Shown piece by piece: positions 9,494-47,639 of a DNA stretch of 64,000 nt; positions within the stretch are counted from its first letter, which is position 1, and every line of letters starts with the position of its first letter. The DNA comes from Eledone cirrhosa (taxonomy: Eukaryota): assembly GCA_964016885.1 (NCBI GenBank), contig OZ024743.1:234794001-234858000 (forward strand), in the 5' to 3' direction. Position numbers and translations under genes: made by a program. The notes beneath the pieces were generated by a model. The model saw nothing but the letters and a program-made list of their open reading frames with translations, was not told where the DNA came from and did not search any database.

Positions 9494-9949
9494 ATGCAAA
9501 TGGATTCTAATAGGAAAATGAAACGGACTGCATATAATGCATCATTTAAACTGAAAGCAATTGAATATGCAGAAAAAAGTAACAACTGTGCAGCAGCAAG
9601 ATACTTTGGTATTTCTAAATGCAACATCAGGCATTGGAGAAAAATTAAAGACAAACTGAAACTAATGCCTAATTGTAAACAAGCTAATCGTGGTAAACAG
9701 GCAAAATATCCACAACTTGAGAAAGATCTGGTCAACTGGATAGAAAACAAGAGGAATGAGGGTTACATTATAACACAAAGCCATGTCAAACTCCAAGCAA
9801 TTAAAATGTCAAAGGTACCCAGGTATGAAATTAATGCTACCTTCAAATTCTCAAATGGATGGTGCACTAACTTTATGAAGAGGCACTCTCTATCAGTACG
9901 CCAGAGAAACAGGCTATCTCAAAAACCTTCATCTGATTTCGACCAGAAG
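9494..9949 (+). CDS. Variable exon V1: pogo-type transposase DNA-binding region (Brinker-like HTH + CENP-B HTH), 152 codons
   Basis: AYNASFKLKAIEYAEKSNNCAAARYFGI...IRHW and YPQLEKDLVNWI...FKFSNGWCTNFMKRHSLSVR; no stops; ends at AAG|GTAATG (phase 0); no DDE domain follows. Confidence 0.75.
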
Positions 9950-10114
9950 GTAATGGATTTTCAACTTCTCATATTATAAACTATTTTTTCTCTCTCCCCC
10001 TTATTTATTTACACACACACATATATATGTATATATATATATGTATGTATATATATATATATATATATATATATATATATATATATATATATATATATAT
10101 ATATATGTTATCTC

Positions 10115-10563
10115 TTTCTCTTAATTTCGAGTATATTTTTTTGACCGGCCACCTTCCTGGTGGCAAGGTTGTAAAAGAAAAGAAATTGTCATCCCTTGAA
10201 TCGCAAGAATGTTTTGCAAATTTTGAAGGTGCCAGCTATCGCAGCCATTTGTAGACTATGAATTAGGGAGCTGCGCTTTTTGTCCGCAAATCCAAGTTCA
10301 GTCATACTTTGGTCCAAGCGGGTTGGTATATAACCCGTAGCTCCAATAATGATGCGTATGAAGCTAAAGGTGTATCTTGGATACTGGATTTGTAAACTCC
10401 CCATTAATGGTCCGTAGATGTCCTCCCTCTCCTGTAATTTTCTGACAACGTTTATATCAAGTGGGCAGCTGATCTCCACAACAGAACACGTTTTCAATGT
10501 GTGGTCCCAAACAACAATATCAGGCCGGTTGTGCTTTAATTTAGTGGCAGTTTTTATTTTCAT
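10115..10563 (-). mobile_element. 5'-truncated R4/Dong-like non-LTR element (RLE endonuclease end) inserted in (TA)n
   Basis: HNRPDIVVWD...VVEISCPLD...IIIGATG ORF open to its stop; (TA)n on both sides. Confidence 0.75.
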
Positions 10564-10762
10564 GTTATGTATGTATGTATGTATATATATATATATATGT
10601 ATGTATATATATATATGTATATATATATATATATATATATATATGTGTATATATATATATATATATATATATATATGGAAAGTTATATTTAAATTGTTGT
10701 GTTACAACTAGTAAATATTTATAACTGATATAAAAGCACTCGACAAATATTTGGAGTATATT

Positions 10763-43405: not shown

Positions 43406-45777
43406 GTATGTTAGACAAAGACTTTTATTTGTATTTATTAGTTTCTTTTTCTATGTATTTCTACATAAACATGTAGTTAAATAATCTTGGAAAAAAATTA
43501 CTGTTAGAAGTGGGGGGTCAGCTTATATTCGGGGTTAATATTTTGATGATTTTTACCAACTTAAAATTCTACATTGCAAGAATTGCTGGAACAATATGCT
43601 TTTAGCAATCATATAGTGTTATTTCTATATAAAATAAAGTTGTCTCCTGTTTCTTTTACTAAATATTTTCCTTGATCTTTGTATTTCCATTTCACAACTC
43701 TATCGCTACAGTACCGGTCGCCTTCCACGTGATGCTGCTCTCAACGAGGTCATAAAGCATGGCTAGAATGCTGCAGGTATCTTTCTATTCTGCGGTGGTA
43801 AACCCCTTGTCTGGGATGTGCAATCTGCCACTAACCCAGGCTCTGCTGCACTTCGGGCTGAGGAGGCTAAACTCTCCAAGTATCAGTCACTCTCCGACAG
43901 GTTTGCAGTCTCCTAGCAGTGGAGACCTCTGGTGTCTTTGGCCCTAGGGCTACCTCCCTACACACCACCATAGGCACTTAGCTGGCGAGCTGCAGGTGTG
44001 AGCCTTGCGAGATGGAATGGTTCTTCCAGGAAAATGCCTTTTCTGTTTTCTCCACCGGGGCCCTGGGACCCCATTTGTTCATAATAGTGAGAGATGGAGG
44101 CGATGACAATGGGAGTTTGGCTCCCCTGTAGTTGGACCTGGTGTACGTGTGTGTGTATGTTTATTTCTATTCATTCGATATGACAGTATCTACACTTTAT
44201 CATACATCAGAGGACCTATGCACTTTATCTATAGTAATCTCTAGATTGCCTCTTGTTTGGTCTGCTTCTAACTGGATTTGGTCTTACCAACAAAGCAATG
44301 TATCTTCATTACTCATGTACCATGTACAGCTACAAAGAAATAGCTCTCTACAAATGTTAGGTTTTTGTTGCTGACAATTTTATGATCACATTTACTTTAC
44401 ACATTCTAGACTTCATCAAAGCCTAAGAATATTTTACTCTTAATAATTTTTTATCTTATTTGTTAAAAGAAACATTAACTGTGAGATTATACGTAGGAGT
44501 TCTGCCACCACCATTTACTAGCACATTCTAGAGAATATCCCCAAAATGATTGTCTGCCTTTGATCCATAACACTCTACAATAACTGCTCCATCATCATAC
44601 AGTATCATCATCATCACTGTTTTATGTCCAGTATCTCTCCTATAATTCCAAGATAGTTATTACCATAGTTTTTGCTCCTCTGGACTTGAATATAAACCAC
44701 TTAAATCTAAGTTTCAACTGTGTATCCACCTTTTGTGTTATTACTCCTGTAATATCTACAATCTTCTCAGTACTGATTGAACTAACAATTAGTTCAATTA
44801 AGAATGCTATGGCATGGACAAAAAGTTACTAAAAACAATAACTTATAAAAAGATGTGACATTCTTAAAAGAATTCATGGTATCTTGAAACTAGTTCTAAA
44901 GTTTAAAAATCATATTTTTCACTGTTTTACAAACTGTAAAGTCTTCTTTATGTCCCTATAAATCAATGTTTCTGGAATGAATTTTAATGATTCTCTGAAG
45001 AAAAAATTCCGAAAGAAATATTTAAAATAAAAACAATATTTAAAAACATTTTTCTATTTTCTTTTTATTGATCTTTTCAAAATATATCCATAAAATATCA
45101 ATAAGAGATTGAGAACATGTTGTTTACAAAAGAGAAAGTAGTATATAAATATTTCTGTTATTGAATTCACTAATGCAATACATTAAGAAGTGAAGTTTGA
45201 TTTCAACAAAATTATGTTTTTTATAAGTTCTTTGGTTGTTTGAAAGGTTTACAACTAATATCTGATTGGAAGATAGAAATATAAATTATAAACCTGCAAT
45301 AAAGTTTCATTAAAAGAATGGTATCCAGCTGTAAAGTTTTAACCAGGAAAAAAGGGATAAACAAAGGAAACATGAACTCTGCAAACTGTTGCACAGGGGA
45401 GCCTTTGAATAAAAACTTATATAGATTAGAGACTCTTTGGTTCTGTTACAGACAACCTCTTTAGTGTCAGTGGCATGTGAGATATGTCCAACCCATGCAA
45501 AACAGTAAAACTTTCTGAAAGTTCAGGAAAAAAGTTTTCATAAAATTGAAATAAAAATAGAAACTTCTCAGTAATATTTTGACGTATAAACTCTGCATGT
45601 AATTCTCATAAAATATTTAGTTGTACTAGGCAGCTATTATGCTATTAGCCAATTAAAAAAAAATCTGTAATTCAAAGTGAAGTAACCCAGATTTCATTCA
45701 TTAATCTCATTTTCTGTAGCCTGAAACAGGTTTTTTTTAACATAGCTATTATAGGTAACTTCTCAGATAAATTTTAG

Positions 45778-46119
45778 GCACATGGCTTAGTGGTTAGAGC
45801 ATTGGCCTTGCAATCGAAAGGTTGTGAGTTCAATTCTCAGACCAGGTGATGTGTTGTTTCCTTGAGCAAGACACTTTATTTCACAGTGCTCCAGTTTACT
45901 CAGCTGTAGAAATGAGATGATAGGGACTGGAGTCCATATCATTCCACTGCAAAGTGGTCGTGGAGGTGCCACAGCAAAAAAGCACCCAGCACTCACTGTA
46001 AATGAGGTTGGTGTTAGGAAGGGCATCCAGCTGTAGAAATCAAGCCAGAATCAGTTCGCGTCTCACCCTTGCAAGCAGGGAAAAGTGGACGTAAAATGAA
46101 ATGATGATGATGATGATGA
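45778..46119 (+). mobile_element. Full-length tRNA-derived SINE with RTE-derived tail
   Basis: A box TGGCTTAGTGG, B box GAGTTCAATTC, central TCCTTGAGCAAGACACTTTA...CTCAGCTG, 3' CACCCTTGCAAGCAGGGAAAAG...(TGA)n shared with RTE end at ~62460-62513. Confidence 0.9.
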
Positions 46120-46616
46120 CTCTCTAGTAGGCAAATATAATTATTTTGCTGAAAAGTCTGGTAAACCTGCAAAGGAATATTAACAGGTAGTGCACATGTT
46201 CATTCAATTTCTATTTTTAAACTAATTTTAAATAACTCACTCCTATTTTCTTTGGCTTCAAAACCACTGATATAGGCTGACCAGTAGTACTTTAAAACTT
46301 CTGTTGAATACAATAGTTATGGTCGAGTCATAATACACAGAAAATCTTTGGTATTGGAATGCAATAGAAAAGTAAAATATTTGTTATAGCTGGGATGGAC
46401 CAATTTACTGTCATTTTAGAAATGTTTTATAAGGCTTCAAATACAGCAGTAAAACTGAGGATATTTATTCAGGAGAATATCTACTTGTAACATTCATAGT
46501 TTGATTAAAGAAAAAGTTTGAAGTTAAAAGAACAAATTATTTTCAAGTATTCTTTGGTATTAATATTTCATAAATCCCACAACTGTTTTTTCTTATCTTT
46601 TTTTTTTATGTTTCAG

Positions 46617-47639
46617 GTACATAAAGTTGTTTTATCTGCTGTGTGTCCTAAGCTGTTGTCAGTATTTGGTACAGATATGCTTTCTCAGAGGTTTCTTCAA
46701 ATTAACTTACCAGAAGAAGTTAGCACAGAAGCTTTAAATGCCTTTGCTGAATACATGTACAATGGGATTCTAGATCTTGATACAGATATTTTACAACAAT
46801 TAAAAATCATTGCAAAACAATTAGACATGAAAGAATTTGAACAATTGTGTGATAGTCAACTGCCCAGTCCAACACCTCAGCAATCTACATCAACTGCTAA
46901 TGTATTTGGTGGTTCAAGCCAAATACAGAATGATATATCAATGTCACCAAACACCACTACAACACCAATTCAACCAGTTTTATCTTTTCCGTCTATATCA
47001 TCTAAATCTCTTTCAACTGTCCGTACACAGGTCATTAATATTAAAGATAAGATTTCAAAAACTGAACTATCACTACACAAGGAAAATAAAGTTAATGTGT
47101 ATGGACCTGAATCTGAAGTTGTCTTAATAGATACAAGTGTAGACAGCAGTTCTGGAGGTTTTGTCATGGTTCCCAGTGTGAAAAATGAACCTATGGAGCA
47201 TGAAAATGACAATTATCAAGAACATAATAATGAGTTTTACATTTCCACTCCAGTTTCAATCGGTTCTCGGACATTAACCAATAGTTTGAATTCCAAAGTT
47301 GCATCAACTACAGAATTTGTTTTACCATTTTCAGACAGCATAGATAGCAATGTAACAACAAATGTGATACATGGAACATCATCTAAATTAAAATCTAATG
47401 TATTTGAAAGCTCTCTAGTTTCTGACTTATCTCCTGTATCATGTATTGAAGAGAAAATGTGTTCCCAGTCCAGTCCCATAAGAAAAGATCCTTCTAAACA
47501 ACTAAATCGAACTGGTAGCCATGAAGGTGTCTATCCTATAGAACTTTTTACAGCAGGAGGAGACAGTTTACCATTATCATCATCACAAGTTACCAATGTT
47601 AAAAATATAGGTTTATATAAAACAAATGATCTTACCTGA
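46617..47639 (+). CDS. Constant exon C3: BTB/POZ C-terminal half + S/T-rich tail, with stop codon
   Basis: Long polypyrimidine acceptor ...tttcag|GTA CAT AAA (phase 0); VHKVVLSAVCPKL...EALNAFAEYMYNG...IAKQLDMKEFEQLC completes BTB (LCD...HKVVLSA...YMYNG); TGA 47637-47639, followed by ATTAAA. Confidence 0.9.
   Translation, partial: VHKVVLSAVCPKLLSVFGTDMLSQRFLQINLPEEVSTEALNAFAEYMYNGILDLDTDILQQLKIIAKQLDMKEFEQLCDSQLPSPTPQQSTSTANVFGGSSQIQNDISMSPNTTTTPIQPVLSFPSISSKSLSTVRTQVINIKDKISKTELSLHKENKVNVYGPESEVVLIDTSVDSSSGGFVMVPSVKNEPMEHENDNYQEHNNEFYISTPVSIGSRTLTNSLNSKVASTTEFVLPFSDSIDSNVTTNVIHGTSSKLKSNVFESSLVSDLSPVSCIEEKMCSQSSPIRKDPSKQLNRTGSHEGVYPIELFTAGGDSLPLSSSQVTNVKNIGLYKTNDLT

Follow-up and report, generated by a model that had tools for sequence, protein, structure and literature searches.

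A candidate octopod locus joining transposase-derived alternative first exons to a shared BTB module

Described modular systems and the octopod locus

For the Drosophila loci mod(mdg4) and lola, the part of the source used here gives at least 30 and at least 20 isoforms, respectively, together with the FxLRWN motif of TTK-type BTB domains, described as arthropod-restricted (PMC11426971). A locus of Eledone cirrhosa, contained in the 64,000-nucleotide stretch of DNA analyzed here (the window), resembles these systems in that a single locus with one constant BTB has many alternative DNA-binding exons, with FLYWCH among the heads. It differs from them in that the octopod variable part is 5' and N-terminal, with the promoter used apparently deciding the head. 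Its BTB is internal and has no TTK motif, a large number of unrelated transposase families have contributed heads, and the exon layout fits plain cis-splicing.

Clustered protocadherins and UGT1A have tandem variable first exons spliced to common 3' exons, the variable exons having been duplicated from one ancestor. The octopod locus resembles them in its tandem first exons and shared 3' exons, and each first exon may likewise have a promoter to itself. Its variable (V) exons, however, are mostly unrelated captures encoding DNA-binding domains, and its parent locus passes through tiered linkers. In the portion of the Cosby et al. report on KRAB-transposase fusions used here, eight of nine traced splice sites are acceptors preceding the transposase, with one gene per fusion (10.1101/2020.05.07.082677). 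As far as that portion goes, the likeness lies in a transposase DNA-binding domain spliced to a host regulatory domain at a site that comes from the element (apparently so for V1, where it was traced here); the octopod donors, in contrast, cut the transposase after the head, and dozens of captures are placed on one host module.

Mukherjee and Moroz 2023 present octopus CENPB-, THAP-, Psq- and FLYWCH-BTB factors under separate gene names and treat the BTB as transposon-derived; 11 of their table rows carry LOC106877732 and two carry LOC106877745, the word "isoform" is used 0 times in the main text, and neither a shared constant region nor an exon array is described there (PMC10027918). The BTB clusters of oyster are whole-gene duplicates, distinct from the V-exon array (PMC12111275). 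Literature searches gave no description of such an array. Within those searches, the claim of an earlier sequence-only reading that the arrangement is undescribed holds for the array, but the fusion proteins themselves are present in RefSeq and are listed singly in PMC10027918.

An octopod transcription-factor locus with multiple promoters very probably has a small paralogue in the window, with swappable heads on a shared BTB body. This arrangement is best read as the mirror image of Drosophila mod(mdg4)/lola, evolved independently through transposase-domain capture and alternative promoters. Under the proposed mechanism, each V exon would be the promoter-proximal 5' piece of a domesticated DNA-transposase gene, consisting of the ATG and the DNA-binding domain and shortened by a splice donor, and a transcript from any V start would be spliced in cis to the next constant exon downstream. 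The products would be 631-659 aa long, in line with the ~630-660 aa expected earlier, and would differ in the DNA-binding head while having an identical ZBTB-type BTB dimerization body.

Such a locus would mean that the mod(mdg4)/lola strategy arose independently, in mirror image, outside arthropods. It would be a compact source of numerous gene regulators, and no other case would show as clearly how a single gene captures transposase domains serially, as opposed to one gene per capture. In octopus transcription-factor counts, many "THAP, CENP-B, psq, FLYWCH genes" would be isoforms of two or three loci. Full transposase, truncated, duplicated and broken heads are all present, and would form a natural series for the conversion of a transposon 5' end into an exon.

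Variable and constant exons of the window

Table 1. Features of the locus (window coordinates; CpG percentiles were scored against 4261 background windows)
Feature	Position	Strand	Content	Basis
CpG-rich DNA 5' of V1	8894..9493	+	putative promoter/5' UTR	CpG o/e 1.19, 96th percentile
V1 variable first exon	9494..9949	+	pogo-type Brinker DBD + Tc5 HTH, phase-0 donor	Pfam
CpG-rich DNA 5' of V2	29248..29847	+	putative promoter/5' UTR	CpG o/e 1.26, 98th percentile
V2 variable first exon	29848..30219	+	FLYWCH, phase-0 donor	Pfam + orthologue match
CpG-rich DNA 5' of V3	38123..38722	+	putative promoter/5' UTR	CpG o/e 1.45, 99.6th percentile
V3 variable first exon	38723..39154	+	Tc1-type HTH	Pfam + O. 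vulgaris fusion match
CpG-rich DNA 5' of V4	39943..40542	+	putative promoter/5' UTR	CpG o/e 1.73, exceeds every background window to three decimals
V4 variable first exon	40543..40977	+	Tigger-type CENP-B_N + Tc5 HTH, phase-0 donor	Pfam + orthologue match
C1 first constant exon	42810..43015	+	basic/proline-rich linker, phase-0 acceptor	matches orthologue
C2 constant exon	43111..43405	+	linker + N-terminal portion of BTB	
C3 last constant exon	46617..47639	+	remaining BTB + Ser/Thr-rich tail + stop	Pfam BTB
Orphan pseudo-exon	2639..2853	+	internally deleted, frameshifted copy of parent constant exons 1-2	tblastn

The four V exons proposed by the sequence-only reading were all recovered with their ATG start, open frame and GT donor (4/4). 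They comprise 152, 124, 144 and 145 codons (V1 to V4), each length being a multiple of three. In Pfam, the curated cut-offs were passed by BrkDBD and HTH_Tnp_Tc5 for V1, FLYWCH for V2, CENP-B_N and HTH_Tnp_Tc5 for V4, and HTH_23 alone for V3, the other HTH models falling below. The exons had been thought to end right after the DNA-binding domain, which does not apply to V2, as it extends ~64 residues past the FLYWCH match. The expected 507-aa linker, BTB and tail was also recovered; it is, however, encoded by three exons with two introns removed, and the BTB is divided between the last two. Unspliced, the V reading frames reach a stop 9-34 codons past the donor.

Alignments match V1 to copies of the pogo transposase and V3 to a full Tc1 transposase. 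The V1 donor sits inside transposase-homologous coding sequence, the pogo similarity continuing to position 9976, nine codons beyond, and this donor was apparently supplied by the element. V3 ends where the catalytic part of the transposase would start, and no catalytic remnant was found behind it. Among the 11 plus-strand ATG reading frames of at least 120 aa outside simple repeats in the window, four are the V exons and one is the BTB exon; V1 and V3 each have one genomic copy, the best match elsewhere being 43% and 48% identical, respectively. The V exons are thus not chance frames. High-copy deletion derivatives of transposons, an outcome that would have counted against the sequence-only reading, were rejected because V1 and V3 are single-copy. 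Stops are present in all three genome-wide relatives of V3, and many of the 76 relatives of V1 are without them. No mutual tblastn match was obtained for V1-V4 against each other.

The median CpG o/e 5' of 44 V exons is 1.06, with a background of 0.42 and values of 0.19-0.64 for nine internal exons. With CpG as a proxy, each V exon may have its own promoter; the separate promoters proposed earlier are thereby indicated for all four window exons, if indirectly. Separately, the segment at ~40200-40390 looks, by eye, like the 5' UTR in the X1 model from O. bimaculoides.

Orthologues and the parent array

The window locus is the orthologue of O. bimaculoides LOC106877745, and C3 groups with LOC106877745/LOC115209904 in a quick tree (SH-aLRT 87). 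The RefSeq isoforms of O. bimaculoides and O. sinensis are predicted models, and those of LOC106877745 and LOC115209904 join V4 (X1) and V2 (X2) to the constant part. V4 is identical to LOC106877745 X1 in 113 of 145 aa, the RefSeq junction projecting exactly onto the GT after 40977, and V2 is identical to the N-terminus of X2 in 81 of 122 aa. The best V3 match (109/144 aa identical) is in O. vulgaris, where a different paralogue fuses a full Tc1 transposase to a BTB, and covers the beginning of that fusion. Thus the proposed joining of V exons to the constant BTB has predicted isoforms for V2 and V4, but the V1 and V3 junctions were not seen: isoforms of the V1-C or V3-C type occur in none of the orthologue cluster members (5/5) and in none of 26 BTB-region matches.

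We consider it improbable that V2 and V4 are the sole true alternative first exons, with V1 and V3 being either transposon remnants specific to the lineage or short ORFs of their own that are present in the locus by chance. This would agree with the lack of an annotated isoform or observed junction for either exon. It would also agree with their relatives: when a V1 orthologue was sought in the 83-266 aa protein size range, which leaves fused forms outside, three candidates came up and none passed, and the V3 relative belongs to a different paralogue elsewhere. However, both exons are intact, single-copy and without a catalytic domain, and both have a phase-0 GT and CpG-rich 5' DNA. Moreover, V1-like Brinker/Tc5 exons precede BTB modules at a paralogous array, and the nearest V3 relative, from another paralogue in Octopus species, begins in the same way and is a first exon fused to a BTB in its own right. 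We infer that V1 and V3 are used as first exons as well.

Cross-species identity is 78% for V4, 76% for V3 and 66% for V2, and 82% for the BTB core. The simulated chance that the V exons would stay intact if neutral is 0.06-0.10 when stops only are considered, and at most 0.004 with 8% indels, an assumed rate. Protein conservation and the simulation thus both fit possible purifying selection on the V exons. For paralogous V pairs of the parent locus, dN/dS is 0.07 and 0.19 in the two of five pairs that were measurable, the other three being saturated; for the BTB it is 0.12.

A scan for further V exons upstream of the window had been proposed, and such exons were found at the parent locus, the orthologue of LOC106877732, which lies directly upstream with its far larger array ending 9 kb before the window. 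The LOC106877732 isoforms are numbered up to X36. The parent array contains ~28 variable first exons of the THAP, pogo/Tigger, psq, Brinker, FLYWCH and DUF3504 types and is split across contigs in the assembly (21 exons on contig C4 and seven on contig C581). They are tiered and lead into three linker exons used in common and into a paralogous BTB, with phase-1 donors before linker J2 and phase-0 donors before J3, J1 and C1; for unannotated V exons the phase match is in part a product of selection, as the donor was picked from candidate sites. Linker J1 provides the zinc-binding histidine, the fourth ligand, of four short THAP exons; a single-sequence AlphaFold model of a THAP isoform (mean pLDDT 40) was uninformative on the split THAP. 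Of the 22 distinct RefSeq variable N-termini examined, nineteen have their place in the upstream array or on contig C581, with a GT where the junction projects, and three are absent from the array here. The O. bimaculoides heads CENP-B X5 and THAP-psq X4/X7 were not found with the queries used. The parent's own V exons are duplicates in subsets only. A third array is located 51 Mb away.

The BTB body, possible functions and splicing

On the orthologue, the Pfam BTB model is matched over positions 4-108 of 110. The BTB homodimer model of the orthologue, which employs residues 273-292, scored 0.83 (best control 0.00; contacts agreeing at 78% or more; pLDDT 85), a pass that the predictor may owe to the BTB dimers already solved. 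The mark applied is reached by 21 of 30 solved pairs and by 0 of 23 single chains (eukaryotes, 17/29; animals, 7/16). The nearest predicted folds are ZBTB-type BTBs; two mollusc BTB clusters with multiple isoforms also came out of this comparison. The domain is predicted to be a dimerizing BTB of this type in its long form with an N-terminal extension. A PDB sequence search with the family alignment gave three THAP structures and no BTB. The extension reads IFILADHQ; with the TTK FxLRWN motif absent and the exon order reversed, membership in the TTK/mod(mdg4) family was rejected.

BTB dimers would pair two heads. On balance, we favor a function of the products as sequence-specific chromatin regulators, repressor- or insulator-like as in mod(mdg4), whose targets would be set by promoter choice and dimer pairing. 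Such pairing as combinatorial regulation, or as DNA-transposon defence, in cephalopod cells becomes testable. A role against transposons seems unlikely to us; in such a role the heads would bind cognate transposon ends or transposase partners, the BTB would recruit repressors or Cul3, and the locus would record past invasions. The derivation of the heads from many unrelated element families, their turnover between species and loci, the decayed or partly intact pogo and Tc1 copies still in the genome and the precedent of the KRAB-transposase fusions are all consistent with it, but many heads are 85-100% conserved across octopods, whereas identity to their nearest free elements is just 40-60%, a pattern that would fit targets in the host better than live elements.

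A broader scenario, conceivable but doubtful, is that the locus family is a standing trap. Elements inserting upstream in the right orientation would donate a promoter and a DNA-binding domain, the tiered linkers would adapt the phase and complete split zinc fingers, heads would pass from one paralogous array to another, perhaps with some also joined in trans from a different chromosome, and pairing through the BTB would give hundreds of two-headed regulators chosen cell by cell. If so, this would be a cephalopod counterpart of KRAB-zinc-finger transposon control combined with protocadherin-style combinatorial coding.

That trans-splicing makes part of the isoform set, as it does at mod(mdg4) and lola, is quite unlikely. 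The counterpart of one O. bimaculoides V exon, 77% identical, intact and with a GT at the same codon, does lie on another chromosome-scale contig (contig C1), and the surrounding 100 kb contain neither a BTB nor a linker nor a further V exon. However, an assembly gap is 40 kb from this lone exon, the parent array is itself broken across contigs, and the V exons of the window, the parent and the third array are all on the same strand, upstream of their own constant exons; cis-splicing is sufficient, since the array exons are collinear with the constant exons. We regard as very improbable the reading of V exons as independent single-exon genes with read-through noise for annotated joins: the V frames close soon past the donor and the RefSeq models are predictions, but conservation between species extends to donor position and phase and not to the read-through tails, the short THAP exons have no fourth zinc ligand unless joined to J1, and near the constant module there is no first exon apart from the V exons.

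Contigs from sequencing run X4, which is not recorded as RNA and was taken as such by size and share, a guess, also touch the locus. A single contig of depth 3.9 breaks off precisely at the V2 donor (30219), 23 of its letters remaining beyond the match, where a DNA contig continues through. Another covers 43108-43404 (C2), with 124 and 162 letters extending off that piece. No V-to-C joint is present among the joints listed for this run, V1 being outside the stretch covered. The run also contains an intronic contig, 41974-42397, of similar depth to the V2 contig, so its contigs over V3 and V4 do not show exon use.

The orphan pseudo-exon near the start of the window, overlooked in the sequence-only reading along with the parent array, was ruled out as a functional alternative by its frameshift: the phase-0 frame stops after 17 codons. 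It has no third constant exon downstream and is identical to the parent exon at 188 of 193 nt.

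Exon anatomy and predicted isoforms of the window gene

The four stop-free first exons of the sequence-only reading, V1-V4, all have an ATG start and a GT donor at a codon boundary, and their fusions to the constant part would have the claimed size of about 630-660 aa. The constant module is 507 aa long, as proposed, though it consists of three exons, with the BTB domain interrupted by the last intron. V1 and V3 are single-copy in the genome (best other match 43% among 77 matches and 48% among 4, respectively), which argues against high-copy deletion derivatives. The nearest proteins to this gene are from octopods and cuttlefish throughout.

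Exons of the window gene, with CpG observed/expected ratio over the 600 nt that precede the ATG and identity to the Octopus counterpart
Exon	Position	Strand	Pfam domains	Codons	Fusion, aa	CpG	Identity
V1	9494-9949	+	Brinker, Tc5 HTH	152	659	1.19	
V2	29848-30219	+	FLYWCH	124	631	1.26	66%
V3	38723-39154	+	HTH_23; transposase HTH models at weaker score	144	651	1.45	76%
V4	40543-40977	+	CENP-B_N, Tc5 HTH	145	652	1.73	78%
C1	42810-43015	+					
C2	43111-43405	+					
C3	46617-47639	+					

Exon C3 clusters with O. bimaculoides LOC106877745 and O. sinensis LOC115209904 in a quick tree of 32 rows (SH-aLRT 87). Each of these genes has two predicted isoforms with a common constant part: the N-terminus of isoform X1 is orthologous to V4 (113 of 145 aa identical), and that of isoform X2 to V2 (81 of 122). 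Projected onto the window, the isoform X1 junction is the GT directly after 40977, and the isoform X2 junction lies 2-3 codons from the V2 donor because of indels. Thus the proposed alternative heads on one constant BTB are supported for V2 and V4 by RefSeq isoforms, which are computational models, in two Octopus species; no V1 or V3 isoform was found among five cluster members of the orthologue and 26 BTB-region matches.

Contigs of a small unlabelled run (X4) and a DNA-like run (X1) were placed on 28900-48500, a stretch without V1. One run X4 contig coincides almost completely with C2 (43108-43404) and has overhangs of 124 and 162 letters, as expected of a spliced transcript. A second, of depth 3.9, is placed up to the V2 donor at 30219 with 23 letters over, and a run X1 contig reads through. 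Because run X4 includes an intronic contig whose depth resembles that of the V2 contig, the contigs of this run on V3 and V4 are no proof of exon use. One deep run X4 contig has six differences at 47353-47542, probably the last-exon sequence of the parent paralogue.

Between V1 and V2, a LINE-like element (17428-21434) has an open 1045-aa endonuclease/reverse-transcriptase ORF preceded by a 333-aa ORF; decayed LINE pieces lie at about 1-600, 10192-10701, 32880-36360, and 59168-62456, and an assembly gap of 200 N at 16731-16930.

The parent array

The upstream region, where a scan for further V exons had been proposed, contains a far larger array: 21 intact ATG-to-GT exons within 125 kb upstream of the window (negative positions) and seven more on unplaced contig C581. 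Its paralogous constant module terminates 9.2 kb upstream of the window, and the locus is orthologous to LOC106877732/LOC115209932; isoform numbers in O. bimaculoides reach X36 (15 of the 32 largest-cluster members listed). Among the matches listed, 19 of 22 distinct variable N-termini map to the array or C581 and show a GT where the junction projects, one is on a different contig, and two were not found with the queries used. The initial observation is real, and the window gene is a small sibling of this roughly 30-headed locus.

The parent heads include THAP, CENP-B/Tc5, psq, Brinker, FLYWCH, DUF3504/QRICH1 (DUF3504 derives from Crypton recombinases), and one weak C2H2-like domain. The V exons are tiered, with a shared linker closing each tier: block A leads to J3, B (phase 1) to J2, C to J1, and D to C1. 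Four short THAP exons (-64281, -52147, -50630, -48728) break off at C-x-K, before the fourth zinc ligand, and the histidine is supplied by linker J1 (-35810; G000:C4, L014). Two THAP-J1 spliced isoforms score 27.6 and 27.1 bits (Pfam cut-off 23.9); the exons alone score 21.3, 19.1, or have no match. The 3' half of a THAP exon makes up J1; the unsplit form persists at -17443.

In supplementary O. bimaculoides scaffold coordinates (PMC10027918), the heads have the same order, the V2 orthologue being last, 21 kb past a block-D exon; this shows conserved synteny and supports placing C581 upstream. An assembly gap of 200 N at -133287 probably conceals the join. Heads die too: broken duplicates occur at C581:77473-77761 (CENP-B) and -64573 (short THAP). 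A recent partial, frameshifted copy of the parent's constant exons lies at window 2639-2853. The ORF at C581:72444-72798 has a phase-1 donor but matches no Pfam model and is preceded by CpG-poor DNA; it is a doubtful V exon and is excluded from the count of 28.

Probable origin, promoters, and function of the heads

Exon anatomy, phases, orthology, and predicted isoforms make variable heads on one BTB module very probable; V1 and V3 are likely also used as alternative first exons. We suggest that a DNA transposon would insert upstream in sense orientation, supplying a promoter, an ATG, and a DNA-binding head, which a cryptic donor would splice to whichever linker or constant exon comes next. 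The catalytic part of the transposase would be lost later, and captured heads could then duplicate, die, or move. The similarity of V1 to free pogo copies extends nine codons beyond the donor and then ends; therefore this donor arose within transposase coding sequence. A search for a V1 orthologue among proteins of 83-266 aa gave three candidates, none of which passed. The top match of V3 among 1.84 billion representatives is O. bimaculoides LOC106872006, another paralogue (77%); the O. vulgaris form of this relative begins at the same Met as V3 and has a complete Tc1 transposase (DDE_3) and then BTB. No Tc1 catalytic part follows V3, a single decayed copy was all that was found of it elsewhere in the genome, and the E. 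cirrhosa LOC106872006 orthologue has no V3-type exon. Either this exon has relocated from one paralogue to another, or two separate captures drew on a single element family.

The head may be selected through promoter choice. In invertebrates with gene-body methylation, retained CpG can be read as the mark of an unmethylated promoter. The CpG ratio is 0.27-0.28 before the constant exons; its median is 1.06 for the 44 V exons in the three arrays versus 0.42 in 4261 background windows (239 of 4500 removed for N or low GC), and 25 of the 44 exceed the background 90th percentile. Since windows overlap, no weight is placed on the p-value. The 5' region of the downstream Rpb4-like gene, a positive control, is likewise CpG-rich. 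Exons of that gene lie at 53301-53385 and 58075-58179 (PF03874 in the latter), and a second, apparently intronless copy is on contig C21. An unlikely rival reading is that part of the isoform set arises by trans-splicing. A solitary intact counterpart of an O. bimaculoides V exon (77% aa, GT at the matching codon) lies on another chromosome-scale contig (G000:C1:342788672-342789064; L048), by misassembly, relocation, or trans-splicing.

Identity to Octopus is 82% in the BTB core, 58% in the linker, and 51% in the tail. When neutral evolution to 68-77% identity was simulated, 6-10% of 600 substitution-only runs left the V exons intact, as did at most 0.4% of 1500 runs that included 8% indels (an assumed rate). 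Among paralogous THAP exons within the parent array, dN/dS is 0.07 and 0.19 (saturated in three of five pairs); parent versus window BTB gives 0.12.

BTB domains typically dimerize. A two-copy model of the orthologue BTB (residues 268-400) scores 0.83 (best of three controls 0.00), with contact agreement of at least 78% and pLDDT 85; 21 of 30 solved pairs attain the score mark, 7 of 16 in animals, and none of 23 single chains does. Given this animal rate and textbook BTB dimers, the model indicates likeness, not binding. If isoforms co-occur in one cell, dimers would bear two different heads. We lean towards a sequence-specific chromatin regulator of host sites; the rival reading is that transposon control is the main function.

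Known systems and wider distribution

The octopod locus works like mod(mdg4) and lola, but is reversed in order and lacks the TTK motif (PMC11426971), so it is no member of that group. It resembles host-transposase fusions (10.1101/2020.05.07.082677) and belongs to their kind, but is donor-driven and serial. Protocadherin and UGT1A clusters have a similar layout, whereas the octopod heads are unrelated to each other. Mukherjee and Moroz (2023; PMC10027918) noted BTB on Octopus CENPB and THAP proteins and list 11 and 2 rows from LOC106877732 and LOC106877745 under separate gene names; the word "isoform" is absent from their main text. The fusion proteins had already been catalogued, whereas no description of the array was found in the literature searched, locus identifiers included (a search that reached few subscription papers and no supplements of genome papers).

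A third array, whose heads are CG-1, THAP, Brinker, and FLYWCH, lies on contig C4 (285.9-286.1 Mb) together with five further BTB modules. The six modules are in tandem (G000:C4:285.92-286.08 Mb; L065-L081): the first, of LOC106872006 type, is preceded by CG-1, THAP, Brinker/Tc5, and two FLYWCH exons, and the others by CENP-B, Brinker, CG-1-like, or STPR exons. Octopus species have a full Tc1 exon at the LOC106872006 locus; this interval lacks it. The BTB exon has 20 genome matches, of which the head survey left out 12, including C4 297.95-298.33 Mb and 312.38 Mb, and contigs C7, C10, C11, C21, C23, and C2.

Cuttlefish have head-BTB fusions of the parent/window BTB family, and such fusions therefore predate the octopod-decapod split; the decapod evidence consists of fusion proteins. 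Cuttlefish proteins and one Logan protein (P0019, P0092, P0073/P0074) bear on this BTB family either a THAP head or one that is Brinker-like by eye but matches no Pfam model. The predicted folds nearest to the window's BTB (ESM Atlas rows 1-2) are two mollusc clusters, "...isoform X16" (BTB 100%, zf-Tnp_2 52%) and "...isoform X11" (BTB and C2H2), a lead to multi-isoform BTB loci in other molluscs.
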